This document shows positions 1-32,804 of a stretch of 40,887 bases of DNA, piece by piece. The DNA comes from a virus. Position 1 is the stretch's first letter. Each line of letters starts with the position of its first letter. The notes under the pieces were generated by a model. The model was not told the origin of the DNA and did not search any database. It saw only the letters and a program-made list of their open reading frames with translations. The stretch lies in the IMG/VR virus record IMGVR_UViG_3300045988_136193; one strand, 5' to 3'. Made by a program: the position numbers and the translations under genes.

Positions 1-51
1 GAAATGGTGCCGATTATGTGACTCGAACACACGACCCACGCATTACGAATG
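1..51 (-). repeat. att core direct repeat (left copy). It reads as the 3' portion of a tRNA-Thr(CGT)-like gene on the minus strand.
   Basis: Positions 1-51 are identical to 40837-40887. The reverse complement reads as an anticodon stem-loop (loop TTCGTAA, anticodon CGT), a T-arm (GTGTG/TTCGAGT/CACAT), an acceptor 3' strand, a discriminator A and CCA. Confidence 0.8.
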
Positions 52-135
52 CGTTTTTCACTCTTTTAATTTCCGTTAATTTCTTTTAATTCGCAACAAT
101 AAAACCCTTGATTTTACTTATATTTTAGATATACT

Positions 136-204: not shown

Positions 205-208
205 TTAT

Positions 209-1459
209 ATGGTTAATAAAGCTACAAAACAAAAAACTAAATTTAAGGGCGTATATTACCGCCAACACCCAACACGTAGAAATGGTGTTCGGTATGATAG
301 ATATTTTATTATCCGTTATTCTATAAACGGTAAACAGCGTGATGAGGGGTATGGTTGGGAATCAGAGGGCTATACTGAAGCTAAAGCCGCCGCCGAAGTG
401 GAAACAATCCGCAATAATATAAAAAACAAAACCGGTTATTTTAGCCTTAAAGAAAAGGTAGAAATTGCCGAGGCAGAAAAGAAAGCCACCGACGCCGCAC
501 TTATTATACAAGAAAGAGAAAATATAACTTACCGGCAATTTTATGAGAACATATACAAACCAAGCTATATTGATAAAAATAAACCAAAAGAGGGGAAAGT
601 TGGCGCACATATAAATCATATATTACCAGTTATTGGCAATATGCGCCTGATTGATATTAAGCCGATACACCTTGAAACAATTAAAGCTAATATGACAGCT
701 GCCGGACGCGCTCCAGCAAGTGTTAATAAAGTGCTTGTATATATAAGTCACGTATTTAATATGGCTAAAAATAATGATTATTTTGCAGGTGATAATCCTG
801 TTTCAAAAGTAAAAAAAATAAAGATAGATAATAGACGCATACGTTTTTTATCCAAAGAGGAGGCGGCAAAACTCTTTGAAAGGTTAAGCAAAATGGAAAA
901 GCCTACTGTTTTTGATATGTCTTTACTTGCTCTGTGTTGTGGTTTGCGTGCTGGCGAGATTTTTAAATTACAAGCGGTAGATATAAACTTTAGTATTCGT
1001 CGCCTTTATGTTCGTGATCCAAAGGGTGTAGTTAATAGGGCTTTACCTTTGCCACAAATTGTGTTTGATATGTTGCGCCGCCGGTGCGCCGGATTAAAGC
1101 CCGATGATTATTTATTTATGAAAACAGACGGTTCAAAGCATATAAATAGTGTCTCAGACCAGTACCAGCGTATAGCAGATAGTCTTTTTAATCAAAATAT
1201 TACAGACAGCCGCAATAAAGTAGTATTTCATACATTACGCCACACCTTTGCCTCTTGGCTTGCAATGGACGGCGTGGATATTAACACTATTAGTGAGCTG
1301 ATGGGACACGCCACACTTGAGATGACAAAGCGTTATATGCACCTTGCCCCTAACAAATTTGACAGCGCTGTAACGTGTTTAGAAAATCCATTATCAATGG
1401 AAAATATCAGCGGCACACTTACTCATTCAGCCACACAACCACAATCAAAAGAGTTTTGA
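209..1459 (+). CDS. int: Tyrosine recombinase / phage integrase
   Basis: The C-terminal catalytic region reads HTLRHTFASWLAMDGVDINTISELMGHATLEMTKRYMHL, giving the R..H..R..Y signature. The gene sits next to the att repeat. Confidence 0.95.
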   Translation: MVNKATKQKTKFKGVYYRQHPTRRNGVRYDRYFIIRYSINGKQRDEGYGWESEGYTEAKAAAEVETIRNNIKNKTGYFSLKEKVEIAEAEKKATDAALIIQERENITYRQFYENIYKPSYIDKNKPKEGKVGAHINHILPVIGNMRLIDIKPIHLETIKANMTAAGRAPASVNKVLVYISHVFNMAKNNDYFAGDNPVSKVKKIKIDNRRIRFLSKEEAAKLFERLSKMEKPTVFDMSLLALCCGLRAGEIFKLQAVDINFSIRRLYVRDPKGVVNRALPLPQIVFDMLRRRCAGLKPDDYLFMKTDGSKHINSVSDQYQRIADSLFNQNITDSRNKVVFHTLRHTFASWLAMDGVDINTISELMGHATLEMTKRYMHLAPNKFDSAVTCLENPLSMENISGTLTHSATQPQSKEF

Positions 1460-1635
1460 AAGCTCAGTTTATCCAAGCCAACCACCGCTTTTACCTCAGT
1501 AAAGCATTTACGGCTATAAAATTCACTTTTCTTACCCTTATTAAATTCCGATACAGGGCGGTGATACCCCATTACGCGTGTCCATATTTCGCATTTTTGC
1601 CGTTCTTCATCTTTTAATTCTATGTTATTTGCCAT
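1423..1635 (-). CDS. Small (about 70 aa) NrdD-like glycyl-radical-domain protein
   Basis: The motif TRVMGYHRPVSEFNKGKKSEFYSR resembles the RVCGY....WNxGKxxE...R glycyl-radical loop at the C-terminus of class III ribonucleotide reductase. An ATG at 1635 follows a GGAGGT RBS. The 1662 start in the ORF track is probably an N-terminal extension. Confidence 0.55.
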   Translation of the reverse strand: MANNIELKDEERQKCEIWTRVMGYHRPVSEFNKGKKSEFYSRKCFTEVKAVVGLDKLSFQNSFDCGCVAE

Positions 1636-1685
1636 TGTCATTACCTCCATTAAATCTGCCACCGGATAATTAGAAAAATTAAGCC

Positions 1686-1922
1686 TTAATTCTTTTCCTT
1701 ACATAGTTCAAGTTCCTGTCTCAATTTATCAATCCGTCCGATCCATTCCCAAGTGTTGGGGTATTCGTCCGCCGTCAAATTTTCCAATTCTGCCGCCACA
1801 GACGCGCCAGCAATAGGATAAACAGGGCAAAAGTCATAATGTACCGTTACGCATTGATGAGAGCAAGCTATCACGCTTTGCGTTAGGACGGCTATAAATA
1901 ACAGCCTTAGCCTTTGCCACAT
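1686..1922 (-). CDS. Outer-membrane spanin (Rz1-like lipoprotein), overlapped with the i-spanin
   Basis: A signal peptide with lipobox VIAC is present. The gene overlaps the 3' end of the upstream TM protein in another frame, matching the classic Rz/Rz1 arrangement, and sits in the lysis cassette. Confidence 0.55.
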   Translation of the reverse strand: MWQRLRLLFIAVLTQSVIACSHQCVTVHYDFCPVYPIAGASVAAELENLTADEYPNTWEWIGRIDKLRQELELCKEKN

Positions 1923-2100
1923 CTTCGACCTCCTTTTGTTTAGCCTTTGTTGTAATTACCACTTGTTGCACGGCTTTTAATTCGCATTCAGCGGCAACAC
2001 GTTTTTCAACTTGCCGGTTACTCCACCAAAAAAACAAGCTAAGCCCCACCGCTAAACATACAGCACGTAGGATTATATCAATTATTTTCGCTTTCATCAT
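1834..2100 (-). CDS. Inner-membrane spanin (Rz-like)
   Basis: There is an N-terminal TM segment (IIDIILRAVCLAVGLSLFFWW) followed by a charged, helical periplasmic part. The gene is downstream of the holin and endolysin and overlaps the lipoprotein ORF. Confidence 0.55.
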   Translation of the reverse strand: MMKAKIIDIILRAVCLAVGLSLFFWWSNRQVEKRVAAECELKAVQQVVITTKAKQKEVEDVAKAKAVIYSRPNAKRDSLLSSMRNGTL

Positions 2101-2425
2101 CGCACTTACCCCTTACAATATCCACTAAAGATTTTATTGTATGTAAAGGTTTATTCGCCAAAAGCCTCAGCAAGCCGCCAACGCTATCAAATATTTCACG
2201 ACTAAACGAACAACATCCACCTATGATTGCGAAAGTCAAATATTCGTTGACATCTAAGCCCATACATATATTACCCACAATCAAGCTCAGCGTAATAGAC
2301 GCAAACACCTTTTTCACTTTATCGGTGGTTGATAGCTGTTCTCCACTCCAAAATACCGATAAAACGCCAAACACTGCGCCAACAACACCAAACTCAAGCA
2401 ACAATTCTTTTATCGCCTTAAACAT
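2078..2425 (-). CDS. Holin (three predicted TM segments, charged C-terminus)
   Basis: The protein is 115 aa with hydrophobic segments LLLEFGVVGAVFGVLSVFW, VFASITLSLIVGNICMGL and LTFAIIGGCC, and a charged tail. It lies immediately downstream of the endolysin. Confidence 0.65.
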   Translation of the reverse strand: MFKAIKELLLEFGVVGAVFGVLSVFWSGEQLSTTDKVKKVFASITLSLIVGNICMGLDVNEYLTFAIIGGCCSFSREIFDSVGGLLRLLANKPLHTIKSLVDIVRGKCDDESENN

Positions 2426-2438
2426 TCCTTATACCCCA

Positions 2439-2879
2439 CTAATCAATATTATTAAAAAACAAGTGGTCTCCGATAACCACGCACGGTGTTTTACCTTTTG
2501 CCCAATTCGGTTGTACGCAAGCCTTAGGATTATAATAGTGCGTAGCGCCTTTGGTTATATCCTCAATTTCACCATCGCAAACCTTTTGTGCAATATCTAA
2601 ACATTCCGCAAATTTTGGATTCGCGGTTGTTACCTGTATAATGATTTTCCGGTTAGGATCGTTTTTGTTCCAGCAAGAAAATTGCCACGGTCTCAAGCAA
2701 GTTGCCGCAATCGTAGCCACCTTGTAGTTACCGATATTACGCCAACCGCACATTTTTTTACGTTTTACTCTATTTAAAACAACACAGGCAACGGCTATTT
2801 TGCCTTGCCTGCTTTCACCACGAGCTTCGCCATATAGCGTGCGAGCAAGTGTCTCTACATCATTAAAATTATACTCCAT
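2439..2879 (-). CDS. Endolysin, SleB/CwlJ-like cell-wall hydrolase (Hydrolase_2 family)
   Basis: The signature reads ARTLYGEARGE...AVACVVLNRV. An ATG at 2879 follows an AGGA RBS. The 2909 start in the ORF track is TTG. Confidence 0.85.
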   Translation of the reverse strand: MEYNFNDVETLARTLYGEARGESRQGKIAVACVVLNRVKRKKMCGWRNIGNYKVATIAATCLRPWQFSCWNKNDPNRKIIIQVTTANPKFAECLDIAQKVCDGEIEDITKGATHYYNPKACVQPNWAKGKTPCVVIGDHLFFNNID

Positions 2880-2958
2880 TGCCTTTATCCTTATAAATGG
2901 TAAAGGCAATACTTTTTGGCATTAAGTCTTATAATAATACTATATCTGTTTTCAAGAT

Positions 2959-3129: not shown

Positions 3130-3412
3130 CTTCCGGTGCGTCCTTTAATTCAGCTTCAAGTTTGCGAATTTCTTGGCGGCGTTCGTCAGCTGTCTGTTCT
3201 ATAACCTCGTATTTGTCAAACATTGGCAAATCAACATCCGGGAACAGTTCACGGAATTTTCGCGCCAATTCCCAAGTAACTTTCCTTGCTGAATAATCGT
3301 ATGCGGCTAATTCTTGATGACAAGCATTTAACCGACATTCAATTTCAGATTTTGTTTTCTTTTTTCCATCCATAGTTTTGTTTCCTTTCCAAATAAACGG
3401 CGCATATTCCAA
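3113..3412 (-). CDS. Hypothetical protein downstream of the DGR RT, possibly a DGR accessory. The start may be Met14 at 3373.
   Basis: An ORF overlaps the 3' end of the RT gene. It is charged and helical. No family was recognised. Confidence 0.3.
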   Translation of the reverse strand: MEYAPFIWKGNKTMDGKKKTKSEIECRLNACHQELAAYDYSARKVTWELARKFRELFPDVDLPMFDKYEVIEQTADERRQEIRKLEAELKDAPEDEHRI

Positions 3413-4533
3413 ACAGTCCGCCGGGCGTTGCGCCGTAACATTGAGCCTGCCCAGCTTTCAAACGATTGTTGAAGTTCTTTTGCGCCTATCTTTCCGGCTC
3501 TCCACAATCGTATTTGTTTCTTAACCTTTCGGCGTTCTCTTGTAATGTTGCGCCGATAAGGTTTTTTGATGATTTTTCCTTTATCCGTAAAATGAAAAAC
3601 TGTTTTTAAGTATTTGAAACAGTTTCTTAAATTAACAATTTTTGTTTTATTCGGGGATAAGGTTATTTTTAATTTTTCGCAAAAACGCTTTATAATGGCT
3701 ATTGCTTTTAATAAAAGTTTTTTATCTTTGGCAATTATATAGCTGTCGTCCATATACCGACCAAAGAAAATACCGTGTCCGATACATTCAGCAATAGCGT
3801 GGTCTATAACGTTCGGGAAAATTATAGCGTGCATTTGCGAGGTTTCAGAGCCAAGCCCCAGTCCTTTATCTCCGTAAGCGTCAACAAGGTCATCAATCAA
3901 TTTTAAAAGCCTTTTATCCTTAAAATATTTACGATAAAGAGCCTTTAAGGCTGGGTGGTCTATGTTTTCAAAATATCCTTTATAGTCCACCAACAGGATA
4001 TAACCGTTGTTTCCATACTTATTGAAGTGCCTTGTTAAATGCTTGATTAACCGATTTTGAGAAAATATAACACCTTTTCCTTTTTGACTTGCGCCGTTGT
4101 CATAAACAAGCGACCGCGTATAAACCGGATATAAAACATTTTTGCATAAAGCCTTTTGCACGATTCGTTCATAAAAACGCACCGCTGAAATATGGCGTAT
4201 TTTGCCGCGTTCGCAAATCGTAAATTTTGAAAAACCTTTTCTAATATCTTTTCCGTCCGTCATATCCCGATAAAGTCTTTCGGTGTTTAACAGCTGATGA
4301 ATACTCCAACTTTGGACGCTGGACTTCCATAAAACATTCTTCTTAGCTAAATCAGCGGCTTCAAATAAATTTATGCGATTGCATACGTTTGCATAATTAT
4401 CATATTTTTCTAAAAACAATTTGCGCCGTTTTATTCTTTTTGCTAAACGGCGTTCAAATCTTTTACTTCGTCTTGTCATAAAATACCTTAAAAAAATAAA
4501 CTTTGCGAGGCACCGAACGGAATTATACCACAT
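3328..4533 (-). CDS. Reverse transcriptase, diversity-generating retroelement type
   Basis: RT motifs are present: YILLVDYKGYFENIDH, LGLGSETSQ (the DGR-specific [ILV]GxxxSQ) and FFGRYMDDSYII (YxDD). The likely start is the ATG at 4479 after an AAGG RBS. The gene is adjacent to the TR. Confidence 0.9.
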   Translation of the reverse strand: MWYNSVRCLAKFIFLRYFMTRRSKRFERRLAKRIKRRKLFLEKYDNYANVCNRINLFEAADLAKKNVLWKSSVQSWSIHQLLNTERLYRDMTDGKDIRKGFSKFTICERGKIRHISAVRFYERIVQKALCKNVLYPVYTRSLVYDNGASQKGKGVIFSQNRLIKHLTRHFNKYGNNGYILLVDYKGYFENIDHPALKALYRKYFKDKRLLKLIDDLVDAYGDKGLGLGSETSQMHAIIFPNVIDHAIAECIGHGIFFGRYMDDSYIIAKDKKLLLKAIAIIKRFCEKLKITLSPNKTKIVNLRNCFKYLKTVFHFTDKGKIIKKPYRRNITRERRKVKKQIRLWRAGKIGAKELQQSFESWAGSMLRRNARRTVWNMRRLFGKETKLWMEKRKQNLKLNVG

Positions 4534-4725
4534 ACTGCCACAACATAAAACAAGCGTCCGTCCGCGTTTTTCTTGCTATGCACTCTCAATTTTTGAGGGC
4601 GACCGTTGTTCAGCGTCAAAGTTCCTATTCGTTTCTAATGAAAACAGGTTTAACGTTCCTTCCTCTTAAATGCACGGTGTTCGGCTGTTTCCAGCTTACT
4701 AAGACAGGCTTTAAGAAATTTTTTA

Positions 4726-4852
4726 GGAATCAGAGCGGCGCACGAATCCAAGTGTTGGACGTATTGTTAGTGTTAGAAATACCGTTGCCGTTGACATTGC
4801 CAGCGATTGCAGAAGTACCACCGGACACAGAGCAGAGCCACCAGTTCACACG
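4726..4852 (-). repeat. DGR template repeat (TR), noncoding, between avd and RT
   Basis: This 127-bp repeat is homologous to 5359-5485. All 12 differences are plus-strand T in the TR, which is A on the coding minus strand, versus A/G/C in the VR. No non-adenine substitutions occur. Confidence 0.9.
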
Positions 4853-4881
4853 CGCGCAGATACAACATTAAACCTTATTGT

Positions 4882-5289
4882 TTACGCGGAAATAATCTTC
4901 GCATTTTGGCTTGCGCCCTTAATAAGATTTATTTCATCAAACAACAAACTTGTTATTTGTTTCAAATTTTCCGCATTAACGCTTTGTATAGTCCGCACCA
5001 TACAAAGCATTTTATTTTCCAGTTGATAGCAGTTAATTAGTGCTTGTTGCAAATATTTCTTGCGAAGTGTTAATTTTTCTTCCGTATTCGGAAATATTGT
5101 GTTTGAGGCAACAACATTATCTAATAACTCACTAACTTTTAAAATAGCGTCTTGAGCTAACATATAACGCCATTTTTTGGGGACGTGGTTGTCATTCATT
5201 AAATATTGGATAACCGCAACTTGTAGTTTTTGAGCCGTAACTATATATTGAAGTTTTGTTGTTTTACGGTCTTTTGCATATACTGACAT
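4882..5289 (-). CDS. avd: Avd-like accessory variability determinant
   Basis: The protein is 135 aa, basic and helical. It sits between the target gene/VR and the TR/RT in the canonical DGR order VR-avd-TR-RT. Confidence 0.6.
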   Translation of the reverse strand: MSVYAKDRKTTKLQYIVTAQKLQVAVIQYLMNDNHVPKKWRYMLAQDAILKVSELLDNVVASNTIFPNTEEKLTLRKKYLQQALINCYQLENKMLCMVRTIQSVNAENLKQITSLLFDEINLIKGASQNAKIISA

Positions 5290-5313
5290 TTTTTAGTAAC
5301 CTTTAAAAGAATA

Positions 5314-5337
5314 GCGGTCGGGATAATACCCGACCGC
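5314..5337 (-). promoter_or_regulatory. GC-rich hairpin immediately downstream of the VR, a DGR homing hairpin/cruciform candidate
   Basis: A perfect 9-bp inverted repeat gcggtcggg/cccgaccgc with a 6-nt loop lies about 20 bp 3' of the VR end, in the avd-target intergenic space. Confidence 0.6.
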
Positions 5338-5347
5338 CGTTTTAGTG

Positions 5348-6391
5348 TTAAGCGATATGGAAGCAGAGCGGCGCACGAATCCAAGTGTTGGACGTAATGG
5401 TAGTGTCAGAAATACCGTCGCCGGTGACACCGCCAGCGACCGCAGAAGCACCACCGGACACAGAGCAGAGCCACCAGTACACACGACCAAACAATAACCG
5501 CCCACGATAACCGGCAGATTTAAATAGCGGCCATTGACACCACGGACCATAATTTTCGCATTGTGGAAATGTTGACTTTACCGAATGAATCATTCCGCCG
5601 TATGCTTCAATTTCAGACGGCGCAAAAATAAGCCCACGTCCTACCCACGCTTGCCCGTTATCATCATTCAATGCGGCAGTTGCAGAATAACGTATTCCCA
5701 TATGCACGCGCTGTTCTACCATACGCGAGCGCAATTTAGAACTGAATAGTTGATAATATCCAGCACCGGCGGCATTATAGCCGCAAGCCCCGACAGGATT
5801 TGAGCTTGCATTGTTTACGCCGTTCAATACCGCATAAAGTTTACTCGCAATCCACGGGTGCGAAGAATACGCCGAACCGTTGTTATTGTTGGTATCATTC
5901 CACGTTACATTCTCATCAGCCAATGAAAAACAGGTAAAATGATGAGGCATTTCCGTGTCGCCAGTTCCATAATAAAGGTCAATACCGGCAATATAAATCT
6001 TTTTATTTTTGGCGGCAATAGCATTTCCGGCAACCGTTCCGGCAGACATACTGTCATAAAAATAGTCCCCCGGATAAATACCGGCAAAGTTATTTGTTGC
6101 CGCGCGTGCGTGCAACCAATCGGCAACATTGCCATATTTAGCAATTTCCGCGGCAAATTTTTCTTGCAGGTTTACACCATCATAAATCCCTTGAGCTATT
6201 TTTTGAGCTATTTTCGCCTCAGATTGCAAGCCCAATAAAGAATTATACTTAGTAACACCGTCTCCTATTTTAATTTCCCCGGTGTCTGTTTCATAAAAAA
6301 ATTCGCCTAAACGCAAAACCTCGTTTTGTGATTTTGCCGCCGCACTAGAGCTTTGACGTACTCTAATGCGTCTTGTAATTACATCAGTCAT
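5348..6391 (-). CDS. DGR target: distal tail fiber / receptor-binding protein with a C-terminal variable region
   Basis: The N-terminus has the motif LGEFFYETDTGEIKIGDGVTKYNSL, common in phage tail-fiber N-termini. The C-terminal ~42 residues are encoded by the VR. Confidence 0.8.
   Translation of the reverse strand: MTDVITRRIRVRQSSSAAAKSQNEVLRLGEFFYETDTGEIKIGDGVTKYNSLLGLQSEAKIAQKIAQGIYDGVNLQEKFAAEIAKYGNVADWLHARAATNNFAGIYPGDYFYDSMSAGTVAGNAIAAKNKKIYIAGIDLYYGTGDTEMPHHFTCFSLADENVTWNDTNNNNGSAYSSHPWIASKLYAVLNGVNNASSNPVGACGYNAAGAGYYQLFSSKLRSRMVEQRVHMGIRYSATAALNDDNGQAWVGRGLIFAPSEIEAYGGMIHSVKSTFPQCENYGPWCQWPLFKSAGYRGRLLFGRVYWWLCSVSGGASAVAGGVTGDGISDTTITSNTWIRAPLCFHIA
5359..5485 (-). repeat. DGR variable repeat (VR) at the 3' end of the distal tail-fiber gene
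   Basis: The sequence matches the TR except at 12 TR-adenine positions. It encodes the last ~42 residues of the 347-aa protein. Confidence 0.9.
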
Positions 6392-7760: not shown

Positions 7761-7786
7761 AAAGGCGGTGTACCACCACCGCCTTT
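7761..7786 (-). terminator. Rho-independent terminator after the giant gene
   Basis: A 10-bp stem aaaggcggtg/caccgccttt with a 6-nt loop is followed on the minus strand by a U-rich tract (ttattattatgtttt). Confidence 0.6.
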
Positions 7787-10700
7787 ATTCATCATCAGAA
7801 TCCCTTAATGAATACGGACTCCAGCCAAGCCACAACAATAACTCTTTGCCATATTCGCCCTCGTCGGCGTATTCACCGGCATTTTCCGCAACATCTTTGG
7901 CATATTTAAGCGGCAAGCCGGTAACTTCACCAATAGGCTTAATAACGTCTAACACGTCCTCAAGATCCATTTCGTCATCAGCGAACTTTAGTAAATCGTT
8001 TTTTAAATCCTCTATTGAACCCCAAAACGGCACTAAATCGCGCACAGACATACGTGTTGTGAACATATTACTGTTGTCCGTTATCCAGTTATAAACGTTT
8101 TCAAGCACTTTGTTGAGAATAAACCAACCATTGAGCGAACCAAGAACAGCGGCGCGCAAGTCATTATCTTTGTCCCATCTAAAGCCATCACTCACAACTT
8201 GAAAGAATACCGGCAATAAAACGTGATATATAAATATTGTTTTTGCCGCTTTAGCTTTACTCATTCTACCTGTTGCCAAACCGCGTATTGCGTTAATTTC
8301 CTTACGTAAATACTGGTTTTGCGAGCTGGTGAACATCGTAAATGCACGCAGTGCCGAGTTGCTTTGCATATAGCTTTGTTGGCTCAAGCGTCCAGATTGT
8401 TGCGTTTCGTCCGTTATCCGCTCAAAAGCCTCAAGCGCTTTGGTTTTCGCCTCTTTTTCACTCATACCGGCTTTCAAGTTTTTATTCAATTCAGACTTAT
8501 AGAGCGCCCAGCCACCCATATAAATTGCGCCTCTATCGCCAAACTTAATGTTAAACATCAGCAAATCATTCCATTTGATTTTGCCTTTTGCCTTTTTCAT
8601 TTTAGCAAATAGATTGCTTTTACTTATTTGATCGAAGTCGCGGATAATATCCGTGTCGCGCGTTTTCATTAAAGTTGTGCCGCCAAGCGTCCGCATAGCC
8701 TCTTTCGGGTGTGCAAAAAAGTCAGCCACACCGGCAATAAAATCCTTTGTGCTTACATTTTCCCAATAAGCAGGGAAAGAGGTAAGCTGTTTTATTGCCA
8801 AACTAGGTTTAACTGCCAGCACCGACTTAGCGTAATTTGCGCGCACTTTATTCCACCTTTTACCCCAAACGTCAACTTTATCATTGCCATTGTTGGCAAG
8901 GTTGTCAATTTCATAAGCTATGCGTTTATTCATTTCTGCCCCAAACAAAGAATTTATGATGCCTTTAACATCCTTATTTGCCAGTACAGCGTTAATATCG
9001 GTCAGTTTATCCATATAGCCCATATAATGATTTTGCTGGTTAATATATTTATTCAAAGCCCTGAATGCACCTTGAATATTGATAACACCAGTACCGGCAA
9101 CCGCCACTCTTTTCTTAGCGCCGCTAAAGCTAGCGTAGCCGTGTGTGGTTTTATCGTCAATCGTTACACCGTCAACGCTCATTGCACGTGGTGTGTAATA
9201 CTTTGACTTAGGCAGGCTCATACCGAAATGTTCTTCATAAAAGGCATTAAACCGCTCATAATTTTCATTATAAAACTCAAATATAGCGTCAGCCACCGCC
9301 AAATCATCAGTGGTTAATTCGTCTTTAACCTTATTTAAGAACGCTTTATTGTATTGATTGACAGGATCGTTAATCATAATCTCACGCGTGTCATCATCCA
9401 AAGACTTCATATAAATATCTATAAGTTGGTCTTTGGTAAACGTGCGCTTGAACGGTTGCCATTTTTGATATTTTGGATTCCGTTCTTTTGGATCAATTAA
9501 GCCGCTCCATTCAATCACAATCTTTTTATCCAACTCAGTGTTCATATAGTGTGTAACACTTTGCGCGTTGTTCATTGTGCCGGATAAAAACTTTTCCAGT
9601 TTTTGGCTGATAAGCTCACTATCTGCCGCAATTCCGGCATATTTCTTTTGTTCTGCCTCAAACATATCTAAATCATCTGATAACGCAGATTTTCCAGTTT
9701 GCGAACGTTTATCATTCATAGAAAGCGTATCAAGTAAGCCGCCCCAGCTTTGCTGTGTCAAGCCAAAACGCGCCAACCGTTTCTTGATTTCCGAGCTTTC
9801 AATGTTCGGATTGATTGCGCCATAGTTGGTTAAAACATTTTTAGCGCGCTCAATCATTTGTTTTTTGCGTTCACGCTTTGCATCGCCGGTGATTTTATCA
9901 GTCAGCCGCCCCATATTGTAGCTTTCAGCCAAGCCGTCATACAGCTTTAAGAGTTCATTGTTGCTAATTTTGCCTAAGTTATAAGAGAGTAGGCGGTTTT
10001 CAAAAATCAGCTGTTCAATATCAACATCACCGCCGGATTTCATTTGTTCCTCAATCAAATCAACGTTTTCTTGTAGTTTTTGCTTAGCCTCATCTTTGTT
10101 CATTGTCGCCAATTCACGATAACGAGCAAAAGCGTCATTAAGCCCTTTGCTTGGAAAACGTCCAACAAGTTTGCCGCCGTTTGTACGCGGTTCACTCCAT
10201 TTAAGCAGTTTTTCAACTCTAGCTTTGACCTTATCACGGTTAAAGTTTAAGCCGTCCAGTTGATTGCGTAAAACAGTATAGTCCCATTCAGTCAACACCT
10301 CTCTGTTATTCTTAGCCGGTTTGTTTTCAAACTCTTTTAGAGCCTCCACAAACTCTTTATTTTTCATACCGTTACGGAGTTTTTGAATAAGGTTTTGCAT
10401 ATCCGCCTTACTCATTTTGCCCTCATAAAGCATTTGCATAGCACGGTTGGTTTGCCATTGTGAGATATTGCCGCGCTCCAGCATTTGCCCCATTTTAAGC
10501 GTGCTTGCTTGCATAGCAAAATCTAAGCCTTTACCGCCCAGCATTTCATCAAAGGTTGCACGCACTTCGTCCGTAACCTTAATACCACTCAGGCGCTTTA
10601 CCTCATACCAAAGACTACTAATCCACTTCTTAAAGCGAGCAAATGCACCCTTTAAAATTTGGTTAGGCGTACGCCCATCGAGCAAATAAACCTCAAACGT

Positions 10701-13700
10701 ATCAGCAAACTTTTCTTCTTGTTCACGTGTCAGCGTGCCGTTTTCAACCCCAAGATATTTATAAATTTCAGCCAACTGTTCAGCCGTCTTTGGATTATCA
10801 GCAAATTTTTGCATATCGTGTAAAAAGAAGTGTCCGAGTTCGTGAATAACCGTTGACGCGTCCGCGTTTTCAAAGGCAAAAATAATGTTTTCATCGCCGC
10901 GTTCAACAAACGCCCCACGCGGAGAAACACCATCTCCGGTTGTTTTTTGATATAGCCGATAATTATTTTCAGGATCAACTTCTATTGTCTTAAATAATCT
11001 ATCAAATGCGGCATCTATATTTGCACGTTCCATTTCATCTGCAGGATAGATCGGCAGCATATAATCGTCCATATTTACTGTTTCACCAGATTTTTCAGCT
11101 CTCCCCAAAGCCGTTAAATACTCGTTTACATCTAAGATACTAAGTTTTGCATGCCCATCCAAAAAGTAATTAAACCAACCATTGGACGCAATTTTATCAT
11201 TTATATAGCTTGCAAAAGCTCTTGCCCCCAATTCTGTTTGCTTTGTCCAATATCCTTTTCTATCTTTAGTTGCTCTGTTTAGCTTATTAGCAGTATCATA
11301 GTATTTACTAACTTTGCGCCAAGAACTAGTACTTTCATCTAAAGTGCCTAGTTGCTTTAATTTATATTGTAAATCAAAAAATATTGCGGCCAAGTCCGCT
11401 GTGCGGCGGCGTTCCTCAATCATATCTTGGAAGTCATTTAGATATTGTTTGCTTTTACTACTGTCATAATTTTTTCCCATTGCCACTAAATTATCAATAA
11501 ACTTATTGATTTCCGCCGAATTTTTTGCTTTTTCAAACTTTGTTTTTATTTCATTGGCACGATAGTCAATAATGCGTTTTATGTGTGAAACTTGGGCTTT
11601 ATATCGGCTTTCAACTTCTGCATCAGACATATCTGCTGTTGAAATTTGGTTATAAAGATTGCGAATAGCATCGTATGTTTCTGAGCGCAAATTTCCTTGT
11701 TTTTCTAGTTCTAGGGAGGGTGTACCACTAAAGTCTTTTCCCAAAGACTGATCGCCAAAATAATAATCTAAAGCGTGCCACCATTCATGAGCTAATGAAC
11801 CGGCACCATTTTTGCGAGTAAGGTTTATTTCATTAAATTCTGGTATAAAATGCCCAGCAGTACCGGCACGACCTTGCGCACCAAATGCAAGCCCCAATTT
11901 CCCCTCTAATCCTATTGCTTTAGGTGGTATTCCCAATATTTCAGTCATATCCAGTAAGCTATCATAAGTTAAATTCAAAAATTCTTGCCGTTCTGATTGC
12001 TTAGTCCAATTTCCAAAATTGATTCCTCTAAAGCCAAATGTTTCCATTAAAGCCCCTGGATTAACATTTTGATTGTTTTGCCGGCGAGGCAATCCTTTAC
12101 GCATGCCAGAAAATTCAACAGTTTCTCCTTGTCCTTTAAGGTATGGCTTAACCAATTCATAAGCATTTTTTGCAAATTCAGCCGCTTTTTCTTCTGTGCT
12201 AAAATTTAAATCACGTGAAATTGATTTACCATTGTTATCAACAACAAACCAACCATCTTGGTATGCTTTTTTAACAACCATAAAATATTTTTGCCATGCC
12301 TCTTCAGCAGTTTTTGTTTTTTCCTTATCTTTGGGAGCTTTTTCAAAATCTTCAACAATAGAGTCAAGTTTAGTCAAATCATAGCCGGTTAGCATCATTG
12401 AGCTTATAAATTTATTGCCACCGGCGACCAACGCTTCGGCATTGTATTCTTTATTTTCTCTAAATATGCGGTTAGGAATTTTTTCTTCACTTGGAAAGAC
12501 ATTGTTCAGAATATCATAATTTATCCCCATATCTTCACGCCATGCGGCAATATCATCTTTATGTGTTTTGGCATATTCAATGGTTTTATCCATTGTTCTA
12601 TGTACAATATCATAAAAACGTTTGGAGTTTTGCAATGTATCATTGACATTTTTAGCTGGTTTTGCATTGATTGAGTTATAAACATAAATAACCAAAGCGG
12701 CAGCTCTGCCATTAACCCCCTGAACTTGCAATTTTTCAATGCTTGGTTTCGGATAAATATAATTTTTAGTAAGGTATTTATGGCGCAAAAGATCATTCAT
12801 TCCCTCTAATTCCGCCCAATTATACACTTTAGTATTGTGTTTAAGATTGCCTAACAAACTATCTCCGGTATCTTCAATTTGTTTTTTAGGTTTATATTCT
12901 TGTTCTATTTTTTTATTTTCACTTTTAGTGCTGAATAATGGCAGTTCTTTAGTTACACCATCTTGTTTTTCTGCATAAGAAAATAAATCATCAACTTGTT
13001 TTCTCACAGAAATAGGCAAAGGTTTTGCCTCATTGTTTATAGGATTTGCAAATAAATCACCGGTCAAATTATCGTTTTTACTACGTTGATAATATATATT
13101 AGGGTTATTAACATCAAAATGGCCACTATTATTTACAGATTTTATTTGATTAGGCTCAAACGCTCCATATATATTATATTTTGGAATAATTAAACCATTA
13201 TATCCTGCTTGTTGCATTTTTTCAGAAAAAAACTCTGGATTTTCAGACCTATATCCAAGAACATACTTTGCCCAGGAATCATTGACCCCTATGTCTTTTT
13301 TTGGCAAAAAACTTTTACCCAAAATGTCTTCAAGTTGCAAAGCACCCGCTTTATTTTTTAACACAAATGGATTTTTTAATTGTAGGTATACTGGCATAGA
13401 AACACTATAGCCTTTTTGCTTTATCCACTCATCCCCTTTACCAAAATAGAACATTTGCCCCCAATAACTTCCTTTTCCTATTTTGCTCTTATCAAAAGTA
13501 TCAAACTCTGCATTTGTTCCGTGATACACAACAAGCGGTCTACCCTGTTTATCAACAACTTTGCTATCACCAAACCATTCATAAAAGGCGCGCAAACCCT
13601 CCGCGGTTTTTGCTATACGATTGCCGTTACTGTTGGTTGCCCACCGGTCAACACCATTTATACTTATCTTTTCGTCTATATAAGTGTTGACAAAATCAAT

Positions 13701-16700
13701 TAAATCATCTATAATAACATCATTACCGCTGTTGTTTGCGACTGTCGCTTTCGCGCCTGCCGCGAAGTTCCCCAGGGAATTTCCAGCGGTATTTGTTTTA
13801 CCAACTTTTAAATCATAAGCGGCAAGGTTTTTATCATTATTTCCCTCAATTTCTACATCAGTTAAATCTTTGCGCCCACCGGATAATTCTTTTACCGTAA
13901 TTTTTACAATATAAGTTTCAGCCGGCGAATCGTTGTCTTTTTGAGATTGTATAACATTTGCGTAACGATGTATCTTGTTTTTAGAGCCGTGTTTTTCGTC
14001 ATTATGCGTTTTAACCAGTATCGCACTATCAAATATATCAGCAATATTAGCAATGCACTCTTTGCCTAATATACCGCCAACATTACCGCCAAGCCGGTTG
14101 CTTGTTGACTTAAACATTTTGCTAAGCGCATTTTTAGATAAAGTAACTGTTTCACCTCTCGCGCTGTTTTTCAAAACACGCGCGCCGTTAGCGTTTCTCT
14201 TAACCTTAGTGTCCAGCGCGGCAACAACATCATCAAGGCTAATATCTTTGCTTTCGGCACGTTTAGCAAAAAAGCGGTTAATTTTAACCGCTTTTACTTT
14301 TTCGTTTTCTCTACCTTTGAGTTCAGGGTTTATATCCTTGCGCTCATATTCCAGCTTTTCCGCGTCAATTTTGCTTATCTTATCCGTCAAATCCTTAGCC
14401 TCTTGAAACAACGTAAAATCATCATCAATACTAACATCGTTTGCATTTGTCTCAGATTCATACTGTTTAGCATTCTTACTGTATTCCTCAGCCGCTTTGT
14501 TATAAGCCGCCTCAGCCTCCTCAGCACTCATACCTCTATAATCCACGCCAAGCATATCCATTTGTTCGGCAAGACTGTTGACATATTCAGTCATAGAAAA
14601 AGGGTTACCATCTTGGTATTGATAGTGTTTTTCACCAAACAGCTCAGTGCTTATTGCCTCCAATAAATCATTTATGGTTGGACGTTCAGAGTAAGAGGGG
14701 AAATATCCGTTTTCCCAAGCCGCCAGCGCAATATCATCAAAGCTATTGCCGGTTTTATTATTGATAAGCCCAATACGTTGTTTTTTTGCATCCATATTTT
14801 TTAACTCACCGCCAACATCTTTCAGTCCACCGCGCTTAATAATAAATGTAATCAAGCTGTCGCCTTTGTTTTCCTTTTCAATTTTAGCAATCTTGTTATA
14901 CAGCCTATCATCGACCAAAGCCTCAAACGGATTAACATTTTGCGGATTGATTCGCTTAGATTTTTTAACGTTTTCTACTTCTTCTTTAAAGTTCAAAACG
15001 CCCATAATGGTTTGCACGCGCTTGTTAATAGCCTTAACAGATTCCTCAGCGCCTTTTGTTTCAAACCATTTTTTTGCCATTTCAGCGTTGAAATTTGCCT
15101 TATTCAAATCACCATAGCGCGCACGAGCGGCAATACCTTTGCGTAACGCTTTTTTCTGTTCCGATGTCCAGTTTTCCGGCACAACACTCATAATGTCATC
15201 AATTTGTCGTTGACGCAGGGCATAGTTATCCGTAACCGGCACACCTCTCGAAAAGTCCTCATAGCTTTGCCGTGTCAGATTCAAATTCCAGCGCTTACGT
15301 ACCTCCTCCGTGCTAACACCCTCAGCCCTAGCAATCGCAACAGCACGCGCCGCCAAAACGCGCGCCGCATTATCAGTAATCGCGCGATCATAACCGGCAA
15401 CGTCCATTTTATCAAAGTATTCATTATAAGTTTCATTAAAGCCATTACGCGCGTCAATATAGTTTGCGGCAATATCAATGGTTTTGTTAATATCCTCATC
15501 ACTCATACCGTATTTTTCTTTAAGCATAGCACGTGTATCAGCAGTCAGACTTTCAGCAGTCAAACCGTCCGGCATAACATCAATCTCAGATTCTTTGCGT
15601 AACAGATTTGTAATTTGTTCGTCATAAGCCGCGCCCTGTTGCAACAAAGCATCTTGCACATTGTCAGCTACAACTTGCAATTCTTCATTAGTTAATTCCG
15701 GCGTATTTTCTTTCAAAATGTTCTTAATTGCCGTATTATCTTTGGTAATTTTTTGGTTATATATGCTTGTGCCTATACCGCCCATACCGGCACCGGGAAC
15801 AGCACCGGCGGCAAAAGCAAACAAACTTTGGCTTAAAATCTCGTCCATACTGTAACTGGAAACATCATTATAGTTTTCCCACAGCATACCAGCGCCCTCT
15901 TGCATAAATTCCTCGCCGCCCTCAGTAACAGCGCCTTTAACCGCCGCGCCGAAAATGCTTTGAGGGTGTCGGGAGGCAATTTTACCGATAGCCGAGCGTC
16001 CGACTTTGCTTTTTAAGGTTTTAGCAATAGACGAGTTAATAACTTTATTGCCGAGCTGTTGAATAGGTTTCACCTTACCAATACCGAGCAAAAGCCTATC
16101 ACCCACAAATTCAAGTCCGCCCTCAATCGCACCGGCAACCGTAGCGTCCGTGCTTGCGTCATTTGCGCTTTCACCGGCGGCAACTGCCTTGTCAAAATAC
16201 TCAGTATCTTTAAGTGCCGCATAGGTTGTGCCTATTGCCGCCGCGGCAACAGTTGGGTTTTTTGTAGCTAAAGCCACCGCCGCCGCCTCCGCAGTGCTTA
16301 CAATACCGCTACTTGCGGCAATAAAAAACTTGTCGGCATTATCCAGCTTTTCATCAGGACGCATAATTTGTGCGCCTTTGTTGAAAAACTTTTGCGCGCG
16401 TTCTCTTAGATTTTGGATATAGGCAATTTTTTCCTTTTGCCGACGGATAATATTTTGCTTTTCTTCATCGCTAAATTCTTTATCACCAAAAAAGCTCCAA
16501 TCGCCATTTTCCCAATCCTCAACAAGTTTCATACGCTTTTGGTATCTCAAGCCCTTATCAAGCACAAGAGAATCCACTAATTGCCCAGTGTGTTCAACAG
16601 CTGCGCGGTTAAAGTCTTGAAAAACTTCCTCTATGGATTCGCCCGCAATTTGTGTGCCTGTCCACACCTTACCAAAGAAAGAGTCTTTATTTTTGCCGCC

Positions 16701-16880
16701 GTGTTGCGTATCAATCGCAAATTTAGCGTCAGTTGCGTCCATTCCGAGCGGCACATTATACATTTGTTGGGTTTCAGCGTCCATAACAGATTGAGTCATA
16801 GGCTCACTATTCTCAATTTCCCATCGCGGTTGAACAGCTTTATTGTCCGTTGTAACTGTATTTTCAATTTCCCAAGCCAT
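7785..16880 (-). CDS. Giant 3031-aa virion/ejection-associated polyvalent protein
   Basis: A single uninterrupted ORF of 9.1 kb. The motif VVYHGTNAEFDTFD...SYWGQMFYF...YGAFEP suggests an H-Y-E class ADP-ribosyltransferase-like domain. LAHEWWHALDYY and VIHELGHFF are two HExxH zincin motifs. Its position matches the T7 gp16 internal-core protein slot. Its start is translationally coupled (TAATG) to the upstream gene. Confidence 0.85.
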   Translation of the reverse strand: MAWEIENTVTTDNKAVQPRWEIENSEPMTQSVMDAETQQMYNVPLGMDATDAKFAIDTQHGGKNKDSFFGKVWTGTQIAGESIEEVFQDFNRAAVEHTGQLVDSLVLDKGLRYQKRMKLVEDWENGDWSFFGDKEFSDEEKQNIIRRQKEKIAYIQNLRERAQKFFNKGAQIMRPDEKLDNADKFFIAASSGIVSTAEAAAVALATKNPTVAAAAIGTTYAALKDTEYFDKAVAAGESANDASTDATVAGAIEGGLEFVGDRLLLGIGKVKPIQQLGNKVINSSIAKTLKSKVGRSAIGKIASRHPQSIFGAAVKGAVTEGGEEFMQEGAGMLWENYNDVSSYSMDEILSQSLFAFAAGAVPGAGMGGIGTSIYNQKITKDNTAIKNILKENTPELTNEELQVVADNVQDALLQQGAAYDEQITNLLRKESEIDVMPDGLTAESLTADTRAMLKEKYGMSDEDINKTIDIAANYIDARNGFNETYNEYFDKMDVAGYDRAITDNAARVLAARAVAIARAEGVSTEEVRKRWNLNLTRQSYEDFSRGVPVTDNYALRQRQIDDIMSVVPENWTSEQKKALRKGIAARARYGDLNKANFNAEMAKKWFETKGAEESVKAINKRVQTIMGVLNFKEEVENVKKSKRINPQNVNPFEALVDDRLYNKIAKIEKENKGDSLITFIIKRGGLKDVGGELKNMDAKKQRIGLINNKTGNSFDDIALAAWENGYFPSYSERPTINDLLEAISTELFGEKHYQYQDGNPFSMTEYVNSLAEQMDMLGVDYRGMSAEEAEAAYNKAAEEYSKNAKQYESETNANDVSIDDDFTLFQEAKDLTDKISKIDAEKLEYERKDINPELKGRENEKVKAVKINRFFAKRAESKDISLDDVVAALDTKVKRNANGARVLKNSARGETVTLSKNALSKMFKSTSNRLGGNVGGILGKECIANIADIFDSAILVKTHNDEKHGSKNKIHRYANVIQSQKDNDSPAETYIVKITVKELSGGRKDLTDVEIEGNNDKNLAAYDLKVGKTNTAGNSLGNFAAGAKATVANNSGNDVIIDDLIDFVNTYIDEKISINGVDRWATNSNGNRIAKTAEGLRAFYEWFGDSKVVDKQGRPLVVYHGTNAEFDTFDKSKIGKGSYWGQMFYFGKGDEWIKQKGYSVSMPVYLQLKNPFVLKNKAGALQLEDILGKSFLPKKDIGVNDSWAKYVLGYRSENPEFFSEKMQQAGYNGLIIPKYNIYGAFEPNQIKSVNNSGHFDVNNPNIYYQRSKNDNLTGDLFANPINNEAKPLPISVRKQVDDLFSYAEKQDGVTKELPLFSTKSENKKIEQEYKPKKQIEDTGDSLLGNLKHNTKVYNWAELEGMNDLLRHKYLTKNYIYPKPSIEKLQVQGVNGRAAALVIYVYNSINAKPAKNVNDTLQNSKRFYDIVHRTMDKTIEYAKTHKDDIAAWREDMGINYDILNNVFPSEEKIPNRIFRENKEYNAEALVAGGNKFISSMMLTGYDLTKLDSIVEDFEKAPKDKEKTKTAEEAWQKYFMVVKKAYQDGWFVVDNNGKSISRDLNFSTEEKAAEFAKNAYELVKPYLKGQGETVEFSGMRKGLPRRQNNQNVNPGALMETFGFRGINFGNWTKQSERQEFLNLTYDSLLDMTEILGIPPKAIGLEGKLGLAFGAQGRAGTAGHFIPEFNEINLTRKNGAGSLAHEWWHALDYYFGDQSLGKDFSGTPSLELEKQGNLRSETYDAIRNLYNQISTADMSDAEVESRYKAQVSHIKRIIDYRANEIKTKFEKAKNSAEINKFIDNLVAMGKNYDSSKSKQYLNDFQDMIEERRRTADLAAIFFDLQYKLKQLGTLDESTSSWRKVSKYYDTANKLNRATKDRKGYWTKQTELGARAFASYINDKIASNGWFNYFLDGHAKLSILDVNEYLTALGRAEKSGETVNMDDYMLPIYPADEMERANIDAAFDRLFKTIEVDPENNYRLYQKTTGDGVSPRGAFVERGDENIIFAFENADASTVIHELGHFFLHDMQKFADNPKTAEQLAEIYKYLGVENGTLTREQEEKFADTFEVYLLDGRTPNQILKGAFARFKKWISSLWYEVKRLSGIKVTDEVRATFDEMLGGKGLDFAMQASTLKMGQMLERGNISQWQTNRAMQMLYEGKMSKADMQNLIQKLRNGMKNKEFVEALKEFENKPAKNNREVLTEWDYTVLRNQLDGLNFNRDKVKARVEKLLKWSEPRTNGGKLVGRFPSKGLNDAFARYRELATMNKDEAKQKLQENVDLIEEQMKSGGDVDIEQLIFENRLLSYNLGKISNNELLKLYDGLAESYNMGRLTDKITGDAKRERKKQMIERAKNVLTNYGAINPNIESSEIKKRLARFGLTQQSWGGLLDTLSMNDKRSQTGKSALSDDLDMFEAEQKKYAGIAADSELISQKLEKFLSGTMNNAQSVTHYMNTELDKKIVIEWSGLIDPKERNPKYQKWQPFKRTFTKDQLIDIYMKSLDDDTREIMINDPVNQYNKAFLNKVKDELTTDDLAVADAIFEFYNENYERFNAFYEEHFGMSLPKSKYYTPRAMSVDGVTIDDKTTHGYASFSGAKKRVAVAGTGVINIQGAFRALNKYINQQNHYMGYMDKLTDINAVLANKDVKGIINSLFGAEMNKRIAYEIDNLANNGNDKVDVWGKRWNKVRANYAKSVLAVKPSLAIKQLTSFPAYWENVSTKDFIAGVADFFAHPKEAMRTLGGTTLMKTRDTDIIRDFDQISKSNLFAKMKKAKGKIKWNDLLMFNIKFGDRGAIYMGGWALYKSELNKNLKAGMSEKEAKTKALEAFERITDETQQSGRLSQQSYMQSNSALRAFTMFTSSQNQYLRKEINAIRGLATGRMSKAKAAKTIFIYHVLLPVFFQVVSDGFRWDKDNDLRAAVLGSLNGWFILNKVLENVYNWITDNSNMFTTRMSVRDLVPFWGSIEDLKNDLLKFADDEMDLEDVLDVIKPIGEVTGLPLKYAKDVAENAGEYADEGEYGKELLLWLGWSPYSLRDSDDE

Positions 16881-31548: not shown

Positions 31549-32319
31549 TTATAAGTTAAGACAACCTTGCGCGGCGTTTGGCTTGCCGTGCTTTGTATTA
31601 AATTCATTAAGCCGATTGCGGATTATTTCCGCATATTTCGGCTCTTTTTCCATAACAATAAACCGCCGCCCCAAATTGCGCGCCGCCACCGCGGTTGTGC
31701 CGGAGCCTGAGAACGGATCTAAAATTAAATCGCCTTTGTTGGTATAATACTCAATAAATGGATACATTGCCTTTAGCGGTTTTTGTGTTGGGTGTTCTGT
31801 TCTCTCATTTCCGCTACATACAGGCAACATAATATAATTCGGCTGTTGTCCGTTTTGATAATTAAACGTCAGCTTTCCGTCCGGTTTTTGCAACATAACC
31901 GCAACCTCCCAGCCGTTTTGAAATTTCACCTTGCGCGCTTGCGGCGCAGGATTTTGTTTTATAAATGCAAAATATCCTTTACATTTAAATCCATATTCAT
32001 TTTGCAAATAGTGAGATAAAAAGTTAATTCTATCCACATCAAAAAAGGCAACGAGCATACCCCCCCCTCTTAATTTTGGCACGCATAAATCAACCCACCG
32101 CTTTGTAAAATCCATAAAATCATCAAATCCGGCAAACTTATCCCATTGTCCAAAATCGTGTGTAATCGCTTTGGCTTTGCCATATTTTTGCCCGTTGCCG
32201 TTACGGATTATTTTTGTATCGTTGGCAATTCCATACGGCGGATCGGTCAGTATCATATCAACCGAGCCGTCCGCCACGTTACCTAACAATTTGAAACAAT
32301 CCCCCTCCAAAATGCACAT
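31549..32319 (-). CDS. DNA methyltransferase, N6-adenine/N4-cytosine type, beta-class (orphan)
   Basis: Motif IV MILTDPPYG precedes motif I LILDPFSGSGTT. The ATG at 32319 has an AAGGA RBS. No restriction partner was found. Confidence 0.85.
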   Translation of the reverse strand: MCILEGDCFKLLGNVADGSVDMILTDPPYGIANDTKIIRNGNGQKYGKAKAITHDFGQWDKFAGFDDFMDFTKRWVDLCVPKLRGGGMLVAFFDVDRINFLSHYLQNEYGFKCKGYFAFIKQNPAPQARKVKFQNGWEVAVMLQKPDGKLTFNYQNGQQPNYIMLPVCSGNERTEHPTQKPLKAMYPFIEYYTNKGDLILDPFSGSGTTAVAARNLGRRFIVMEKEPKYAEIIRNRLNEFNTKHGKPNAAQGCLNL

Positions 32320-32345
32320 TTTTCTTATCCTTGCGGTGGTGTAAG

Positions 32346-32804
32346 TTACATATCTAAAGCCTTGCAATAGGTGTCTGTAACCAATTCTTGCTCTTCGCGG
32401 TCGGCGACATTCATTTTACGTAGTTTCAAAACAACGCGCATAATTTTAACATCAAAACCGGCACTCTTAGCCTCAGCGAAAACATCGCGTATATCATTAC
32501 TTACATCTTTCTTTTCTTCCTCTAGGCGCTCAATACGCTCAATCAGACTACGCAATCTATCTTTGGCAATACCACCAACCTCAGTGTCTTTTTCTTTAAC
32601 GCAATCCATCACCGGCTCATTTTCCGGTTCAGGTTCTCTGCCCAGCACCTTGCCAACTCTTGTTTCGCTATATTTGCTATCATTTTCCATAGTCTTTTGT
32701 TCCTTTTGATATTCAAATTGATTTACAATGTCCGTAGGCACACCAAATGTAGCGGCCAACGCCTCTGCCTTTTCACGTGTGCAATTCATTTTCTTTTTGT
32801 GCAT
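32346..32804 (-). CDS. GapR-like (DUF2312) nucleoid-associated DNA-binding protein with an N-terminal extension
   Basis: The C-terminal ~75 aa read LRSLIERIERLEEEKKDVSNDIRDVFAEAKSAGFDVKIMRVVLKLRKMNVADREEQELVTDTYCKAL. This aligns with the GapR/DUF2312 pattern (IE.LEEEKK.i..dirD.yAEAK..GF.vK..R.....RK). Confidence 0.6.
   Translation of the reverse strand: MHKKKMNCTREKAEALAATFGVPTDIVNQFEYQKEQKTMENDSKYSETRVGKVLGREPEPENEPVMDCVKEKDTEVGGIAKDRLRSLIERIERLEEEKKDVSNDIRDVFAEAKSAGFDVKIMRVVLKLRKMNVADREEQELVTDTYCKALDM

Follow-up and report, generated by a model that had tools for sequence, protein, structure and literature searches.

What could a prophage gain from a gene for 70 amino acids that resemble the glycyl-radical end of an anaerobic, class III ribonucleotide reductase (RNR)? 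The question is posed by a small open reading frame (ORF) in the IMG/VR record IMGVR_UViG_3300045988_136193, the whole 40,887-nt stretch of which we call the window and which is one complete 40.9-kb prophage. From sequence comparisons we propose, with a probability of about 0.6, that this gene specifies a glycyl-radical subunit acting in trans within a class III RNR that is naturally split, and that it serves as an exchangeable extra copy for the enzyme of the host.

The gene runs on the minus strand from an ATG at position 1635 to a stop codon that ends at 1423, and its 70-residue product is MANNIELKDEERQKCEIWTRVMGYHRPVSEFNKGKKSEFYSRKCFTEVKAVVGLDKLSFQNSFDCGCVAE. Its parts, in window coordinates, are the following.

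1423..1635, minus strand: small glycyl-radical gene of the NrdD type, 70 amino acids, recognized from its ORF, its Pfam NRDD match, its homologues and the selection acting on it
1643..1648, minus strand: ribosome-binding site GGAGGT, read from the sequence; 7 nt separate it from the ATG at 1635
1564..1578, minus strand: codons of the glycyl-radical motif R20-V-M-G23-Y24, with the Gly23 codon at 1567..1569, aligned to the loop of T. maritima NrdD
1426..1500, minus strand: variable C-terminal tail …EVKAVVGLDKLSFQNSFDCGCVAE ending in -AE and containing a CxC pair; the operon copies of the host lineage have tails of this type (…DNDCGCTLAAE)

An earlier interpretation made from the letters alone (the sequence-only reading) had described an ORF of about 70 codons with a GGAGGT ribosome-binding site that carries the C-terminal glycyl-radical loop of NrdD and lacks the rest of the enzyme and its zinc ribbon. 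All of this held: ORF and binding site are both present on the minus strand, and the peptide quoted at the time corresponds to residues 19-42. The profile search and the alignment to NrdD C-termini that it had called for gave a significant match to Pfam NRDD (PF13597; 32.4 bits, E = 5.5e-8, gathering cut-off 26.2), confined to the C-terminus of the profile, with protein residues 12-45 aligned to positions 530-562 of 562. The profile of the small protein likewise aligned to T. maritima NrdD (4coi, 651 residues) over residues 616-645, which include its RIVGY loop, and the motif string R20-V-M-G23-Y24 … N32-K-G-K-K-S-E38 … R42 is kept across the family. Five NCBIfam NrdD equivalog models matched by their extreme C-termini only, far under their whole-protein cut-offs; among PHROGs, the protein matched phrog_4132 (unknown function) and, weakly, the NrdD phrog. 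No match to Pfam Gly_radical (PF01228), the pyruvate formate-lyase (PFL) type, was returned at E ≤ 10, the search yielding only NRDD and one spurious family.

The product thus consists of the loop and a C-terminal tail: it has a single cysteine (C15) before the loop and no CxxC…CxxC zinc ribbon, and the ten-stranded alpha/beta barrel with the thiyl-radical cysteine is not on this chain. An AlphaFold2 model of the monomer reached a mean pLDDT (predicted local distance difference test) of 55.5 with no confident fold, a low-confidence outcome that is compatible with a segment that folds on binding.

The bacterial side of the answer came from the host, whose possession of nrdDG the sequence-only reading had proposed to check. 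The prophage lies within host contigs of 110 and 437 kb, where a complete tRNA at the junction is followed by housekeeping genes, and the flanking alanyl-tRNA synthetase is 99% identical to proteins of metagenome-assembled genomes (MAGs) named ‘Alphaproteobacteria bacterium’ (MCI7486296, MCI5635183). The accessions of P0269, a 70-residue member of the small-protein family, fall numerically close to these (MCI7486576, MCI5634150); it is encoded on 853 contigs, in an operon of the order nrdD (699 amino acids)-P0269-nrdG (235 amino acids), whose three genes occupy 2857-4956, 5001-5213 and 5225-5932 of L174. Synthetase identity and accession proximity together thus connect the prophage to a host with nrdDG, and they point, indirectly, to a common uncultured species of gut Alphaproteobacteria with a split operon. 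This link is consistent with the presence of such an operon in nearly all gut and rumen Alphaproteobacteria loci, and one MAG holds prophage-type and operon-type copies together (IKN71_05615, IKN71_06515).

The 699-residue host NrdD comprises an ATP-cone, the barrel and a zinc site (CPKH…CPIC) and ends …CPICDEEKKAAKLKKLKASNAA*, about 16 residues past the last zinc-site cysteine; a radical loop (RVxGY) was not found in it, and its alignment to P. copri NrdD extends no further than the zinc-site CPKCGS. The phage protein and P0269 are 71% identical overall, and within the core CEIWTRVMGYHRPVSEFNKGKKSE[F/Y]YSRKCF they differ at the F/Y position only, both tails containing DCGC…AE. Because this host encodes the loop as a separate gene, we regard the phage gene as an extra copy of a normal small subunit.

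The same arrangement extends well beyond this host. On cellular contigs the small gene stands between an NrdD of about 700 residues (ATP-cone plus NRDD) and a radical S-adenosylmethionine (radical-SAM) NrdG; this NrdD ends …FSICPKHGYLSGEHKYCPICDEEKKAAKIKALKASNVA*, just past its zinc ligands and with no radical loop, and the small gene starts 35 nt further on with a Shine-Dalgarno sequence of its own. A scan of GTDB, with one genome per species, returned at least 598 encoding stretches, mostly in Alpha-, Beta- and Gammaproteobacteria with a few in Omnitrophota. Context was examined for the best 80 of them, and at 66 of these 80 loci the small gene is a separate ORF with nrdD immediately upstream and nrdG immediately downstream; loci L007-L010 and L174-L177 likewise read nrdD, small gene with its own start, nrdG. 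In four representative large subunits, which end …CPxCDEE…, the motif R[VIT]xG[YFW] was found nowhere, and the zinc ligands of the split enzyme (CPxH…CPxC) are on the large subunit. Since a loop-less nrdD, a separate loop gene and nrdG follow one another in this way, class III RNR appears to be naturally split in these Proteobacteria, and a split-enzyme architecture in the host and in many other bacteria is well supported by the sequence comparisons. Its cellular small subunit is probably obligatory for the enzyme.

Fused and split forms both occur in this NrdD clade. Locus L088 (~3946..6228) holds a genuine fusion, in which one ORF reads from …CPSCDEEK through a linker of about 30 residues into …RQRCEVWTRVMGYHRPV…, and the small protein is therefore collinear with the NrdD C-terminus. 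Other long stop-to-stop frames in high-GC genomes, considered as further fusions, proved to be out-of-frame overlaps only. That the split itself is an artefact of MAG assembly or of frameshifts is ruled out by separately annotated coding sequences in finished replicons of cultured strains; the varying frames and spacers of the split genes between genomes also count against it. The arrangement is carried by 162 PLSDB replicons, among them Cupriavidus necator H16 pHG1 (L182 1271..4347), with H16_RS32680 (676 amino acids), H16_RS32675 (66 amino acids; WP_011154154.1) and the activase H16_RS32670, as well as R. solanacearum megaplasmids and replicons of Bradyrhizobium and Paracoccus denitrificans. 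C. necator needs the nrdDG of pHG1 to grow anaerobically on nitrate.

Existing annotation gives the small operon genes no separate role, naming their products ‘anaerobic ribonucleoside-triphosphate reductase’; RefSeq places the symbol ‘nrdD’ on the 66-residue coding sequence of H16 and calls the 676-residue catalytic subunit only ‘ribonucleoside triphosphate reductase’. In the literature, nrdD and nrdG of C. metallidurans CH34 bear the tags Rmet_5137 and Rmet_5139 (PMC2864759), which imply one gene, Rmet_5138, between them. Descriptions of these operons seem to have missed the small gene. Sequences of fewer than 400 residues were dropped from a large RNR phylogeny (PMC9531940), a filter that would hide the small-protein family.

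In gut and rumen Alphaproteobacteria and in Sutterella we also observed small genes unlinked to nrdDG (L003-L006, L017, L025, L038-L041 and L060). Their neighbours are FtsZ, ParC/GyrA and cold-shock genes and genes for metabolic enzymes. These copies are chromosomal and do not look like obvious prophage genes; they may be second copies with a regulation of their own.

A protein search found at least 1006 cluster representatives of the family, and the 120 homologues listed are 52-78 residues long, all with an NRDD Pfam match. Between a variable N-terminus and a variable tail, the core ER.xCE[IV]WTRVMGY.RP..FN.GK..E…R..F is near-invariant. Selection on it was assessed over 168 loci with 156 distinct DNA sequences of a 34-residue core: 18 of the 34 residues are invariant across these 156 sequences, with all synonymous codons in use (six for arginine), and the radical motif RVMGY is unchanged in every one (156/156). 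Over the same 34 codons, the window gene and L012 differ by 20 synonymous codons and 2 amino acids. Judged from these comparisons, the family is under strong purifying selection. We saw no core residue that tells operon copies from phage copies.

Outside the radical motif, a cysteine three residues before the tryptophan is near-invariant (148/151) and specific to the family. A cysteine pair (CGC, CAC, CTC or CC) occurs in roughly a quarter of the tails and an -A(A)E end in about a third, operon and phage copies alike; the pair recalls the C-terminal cysteines that act as redox shuttles in class I and class II RNRs. A zinc site on the small subunit built from C15, C44 and the tail CxC was also considered and is not a general feature, C44 occurring in about half of the proteins and tail pairs in about a quarter.

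Relatives are encoded on 284 IMG/VR contigs from gut, rumen and environmental samples. In the best 80 of these, where nrdD and nrdG were looked for within 6 kb, neither was found in 77; the exceptions are L117, with nrdD adjacent, and L129 and L130, with nrdD 3.8 kb away. The viral small gene is usually the last after holin, endolysin and spanin genes on the same strand, and often a convergent integrase comes next. The integrase is of the window's tyrosine type in L001, L091, L092, L094, L095 and L179-181, of a different tyrosine type in L114, and a large serine recombinase in L102, L105 and L109. Prophage and cellular copies have lineage-specific features in common: operon copies of Sutterella read …SSFNTGKKGEFYERKCFVESKCGLSK and orphan copies of Sutterella …ERKCFVESKCHLDEK, and in Alphaproteobacteria prophage and operon copies share …CxC…AAE tails. 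Against 50,697 GenBank phage records, megablast of window positions 1-6000 gave no match and tblastn of the 70-residue protein two weak matches only, and we conclude from this that no cultured phage among them carries the small gene.

The prophage that houses the window gene is itself found in many gut metagenome assemblies and has the following features beside the small gene.

1..51: attachment (att) core of 51 bp that forms the 3' part of a tRNA-Thr(CGU) gene in the host, an exact direct repeat of 40837..40887
40837..40887: second copy of the att core; a complete tRNA-Thr(cgt) stands at the junction in host contig L172 (10942..11017)
209..1459, plus strand: tyrosine integrase gene int, from the Phage_integrase Pfam match of the identical gene in L001
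1686..2909, minus strand: lysis cassette, directly upstream of the small gene on the same strand, from ORF reading and Pfam
2439..2909, minus strand: Hydrolase_2 endolysin
2078..2425, minus strand: holin-like ORF
1834..2100 and 1686..1922, minus strand: overlapping o-/i-spanin-like ORFs
3328..4533, minus strand: reverse transcriptase (RVT_1) of a candidate retroelement
4882..5289, minus strand: 135-amino-acid ORF of the same element
5348..6391, minus strand: Mtd_N-like target protein of the same element

The small gene and int are convergent, their 3' ends overlapping by 37 nt, and the gene does lie between int (209..1459) and the lysis genes (1686..2909), where the sequence-only reading had placed it. 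That reading had also found no RNR catalytic subunit or activase of the phage's own, which our searches bear out: tblastn of the window with full NrdD, NrdG and two phage radical-SAM proteins returned nothing better than E = 0.13, and no ORF of the window credibly bears CxxxCxxC, so that the phage lacks both. The remnant of a degraded gene might have left homology in flanking DNA; tblastn detected no NrdD homology in the flanks of the small gene in any frame. Integration of the phage into nrdD, with the small gene as a replacement 3' end, was also considered and is ruled out by the att site, which is a piece of tRNA-Thr on the opposite side of int.

Several other genes of the window deserve a brief record. 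The three ORFs at 3328..6391 on the minus strand form a candidate diversity-generating retroelement, which the related prophages L179-L181 share. A 3031-residue ORF (7785..16880, minus strand) has a near-identical counterpart in L001 with the LPD3, ART-PolyVal and LPD1 domains of ‘polyvalent’ proteins. An N6_N4 DNA methylase is encoded at 31549..32367 (minus strand), and the counterpart in L171 of the adjoining 152-residue ORF (32346..32804) is a GapR_DNA-bd protein.

How might a detached loop work? The radical domain of a glycyl-radical enzyme has to come out of the barrel before it can be activated (PMC3019208; PMC13450708). In P. copri NrdD this domain combines a zinc site with a buried loop and a tail on the surface; it is highly mobile and moves largely as a rigid body (PMC11226230). 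The PFL activating enzyme (PFL-AE) activates YfiD and T4 Y06I while these are free in solution, after which they complement PFL (PMC8683613). Given this mobility and the charging of YfiD and Y06I in solution, a separate loop-plus-tail protein is mechanistically plausible. In the scheme that we propose, host NrdG, a radical-SAM enzyme, would abstract the C-alpha hydrogen of Gly23 on the free protein of about 7 kDa, and the charged protein would then dock onto NrdD and place its loop in the barrel, by the finger-loop cysteine of the MCCR motif, for reduction of ribonucleoside triphosphates. Oxygen, which cleaves the NrdD chain at the radical glycine (PMC3019208), would destroy only the cheap small subunit, which could be exchanged. 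A second copy in the prophage would enlarge or replenish the pool of this consumable subunit at the cost of a 213-nt gene and might sustain deoxyribonucleoside triphosphate (dNTP) synthesis for the lysogen, which would be a moron-type function, for phage replication or for both, in a gut habitat with oxygen transients.

A broader claim has, in our estimate, slightly better than even odds: that much of the Proteobacteria uses a two-component class III RNR whose radical subunit is charged by NrdG off the enzyme, and that temperate phages, in several lineages, acquired this 200-bp ‘radical cartridge’ again and again as a means to recharge the NrdD of their hosts.

A number of points weigh against the proposal of an extra radical subunit. 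P0269 was assigned to the host by accession proximity and not on one shared contig; the host already has its own copy, so that the advantage of a second is inferred. The N-terminus and tail of the phage protein differ from those of the host copy, a divergence that leaves possible room for altered or antagonistic behaviour. The small gene is the last ORF of the late or lysis transcription unit, and late expression would be odd for a function in dNTP supply; a promoter and terminator scan around the gene gave counts as in shuffled sequence, with no gene-specific site. Finally, in seven viral contigs (L135, L136, L147, L149, L150, L152 and L155) two translationally coupled radical-SAM genes directly precede the small gene, as in this example.

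L149 3746..7061: radical-SAM pair (336 and 432 amino acids; Radical_SAM plus Fer4_12, with Cys-rich C-termini) and small gene

In this group a 291-residue protein without a Pfam match follows the small gene. The radical-SAM neighbours could encode a phage activase or a different radical partner, and the group hints at partners other than the split RNR.

The last observation is what favours a reading in which the small protein is the substrate or partner of some other radical-SAM enzyme, as a carrier of the kind found with ribosomally synthesized and post-translationally modified peptides or another radical carrier, unrelated to ribonucleotide reduction. We hold it to be improbable: the window has no such gene, the core is identical to that of operon copies flanked by nrdD and nrdG, and the pairing of Fer4_12 with Radical_SAM is as in NrdG, so that the neighbours could be phage activases. 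Somewhat more credit, though still little, goes to a decoy or inhibitor that competes for NrdG or for the NrdD barrel and lowers or re-tunes the host RNR, for example in superinfection exclusion or host shut-off, an alternative that the sequence-only reading had raised. An orphan gene in a phage without the partner genes, an N-terminus and tail that diverge from the host copy and a position that suggests late-operon expression would all suit a decoy. Yet the phage protein keeps all residues that never vary among the cellular operon copies, the radical glycine and its neighbours included; one core residue distinguishes it from the protein of the host, and no phage-specific substitution separates orphans from operon copies. 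An identical core would be activated and would dock like the host protein, and a phage without its own RNR depends on host dNTPs. The decoy is thus disfavoured.

The sequence-only reading had also suggested a spare part by analogy with GrcA/YfiD. The gene does encode a stand-alone NrdD radical module, and the direction of this idea stands, but the analogy is inexact. A classical GrcA-type rescue, in which a full-length NrdD, in this or alternative hosts, loses its C-terminus to oxygen cleavage and receives the phage protein instead, has precedents in YfiD and T4 Y06I, fits the cleavage of NrdD at its radical glycine by oxygen (PMC3019208) and could find a target in fused relatives such as L088. 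It is nevertheless about as improbable as another radical-SAM partner, with no match of the protein to the GrcA/Gly_radical family, a split operon in most genomes that carry the small-protein family, and a NrdD in the identified host that has no loop to lose. We give almost no credence to the view that the gene is what is left, without function, of a decayed nrdD, or an ORF that arose by chance antisense to the 3' end of int. Its small size and 37-nt overlap with int might suggest as much; the gene, however, has its own ribosome-binding site and start codon between flanks without NrdD homology, and its position is kept across several phage lineages with different integrases. More than 1,000 homologues of constant size, 18 invariant residues and free synonymous variation under strong purifying selection exclude such an origin.

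If the broader claim on a two-component RNR and its captured cartridge is true, autonomous glycyl-radical cofactors would for the first time extend to an enzyme besides PFL, and the window gene would be a minimal auxiliary metabolic gene, among the smallest known, that boosts dNTP supply without encoding an enzyme. The phage would carry a consumable enzyme part rather than an enzyme, a strategy that would recur in the 284 viral contigs. The cataloguing of class III RNRs would be affected as well, since loop-less NrdDs would pass as complete in surveys that leave out short sequences, though unable to hold a radical alone. The family lies beside nrdD and nrdG, with a large subunit that lacks the loop, in three genetically tractable bacteria (C. 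necator H16, R. solanacearum, P. denitrificans), and the spare-part question is open to experiment. In a review of June 2026, spare parts are known only for formate lyases (PMC13450708), and those for enzymes other than PFL are listed as an open question (PMC13450708; PMC8683613). In the searchable full-text literature, which did not include subscription literature, we found neither a spare part for NrdD nor a split-off NrdD radical subunit described.

Among known systems, GrcA/YfiD of E. coli and T4 Y06I come closest in concept, each being, like the window protein, a small stand-alone glycyl-radical segment of a large enzyme, with Y06I as a phage precedent (PMC8683613; PMC13450708). Activation by the activase of the partner and action in trans, as in GrcA/YfiD, are presumed for the window protein by analogy. 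Unlike GrcA, it is homologous to NrdD and not to PFL, and it has about 70 residues as against about 127. The partner of GrcA, moreover, keeps a radical domain of its own, whereas the split NrdD has no loop and the cellular homologue would be its regular subunit. Canonical single-chain NrdDs (E. coli, T4, P. copri, T. maritima) share the RVxGY loop, after which they too have FN.GK..E…R and a tail at the surface; in the window family this segment is a separate polypeptide that leaves the zinc site on the large subunit, with a near-invariant cysteine before the tryptophan and a variable tail that often has CxC.

Viral RNRs in pieces are known from phage genes split by introns, inteins or homing endonucleases, such as Aeh1 nrdA-a/b and phiAS4 nrdD (PMC3653736). 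There, both pieces are adjacent and were separated by mobile elements; here, the phage has the 70-residue piece only and the host would supply the rest. A stand-alone viral NrdD C-terminal module with a SRIVGYLRPVNQWNKGK loop is also encoded by the archaeal virus ANMV-1 (AJP62049.1; KP703175.1; L178 2713..3147), and it probably corresponds to phrog_4132. Unlike the window protein, this 144-residue module is twice as long, keeps a CHDC…CPKC zinc ribbon and belongs to a virus of an archaeal (ANME, anaerobic methanotrophic) host; the two are 45% identical over the loop.

In class I RNR, the stable radical resides on a separate, dissociable small subunit, NrdB or NrdF. The window protein would share this functional logic of a radical on a dissociable subunit, but fold and chemistry differ, with a di-metal tyrosyl radical in NrdB/NrdF and a glycyl radical installed by a radical-SAM activase here. 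Closest in sequence are the small ‘nrdD’ coding sequences of proteobacterial nrd operons. One of these, the 66-residue H16_RS32675, belongs to the same family and has the same core, and unlike it the window copy is an orphan, set in a prophage beside lysis genes and int, with neither nrdD nor nrdG.

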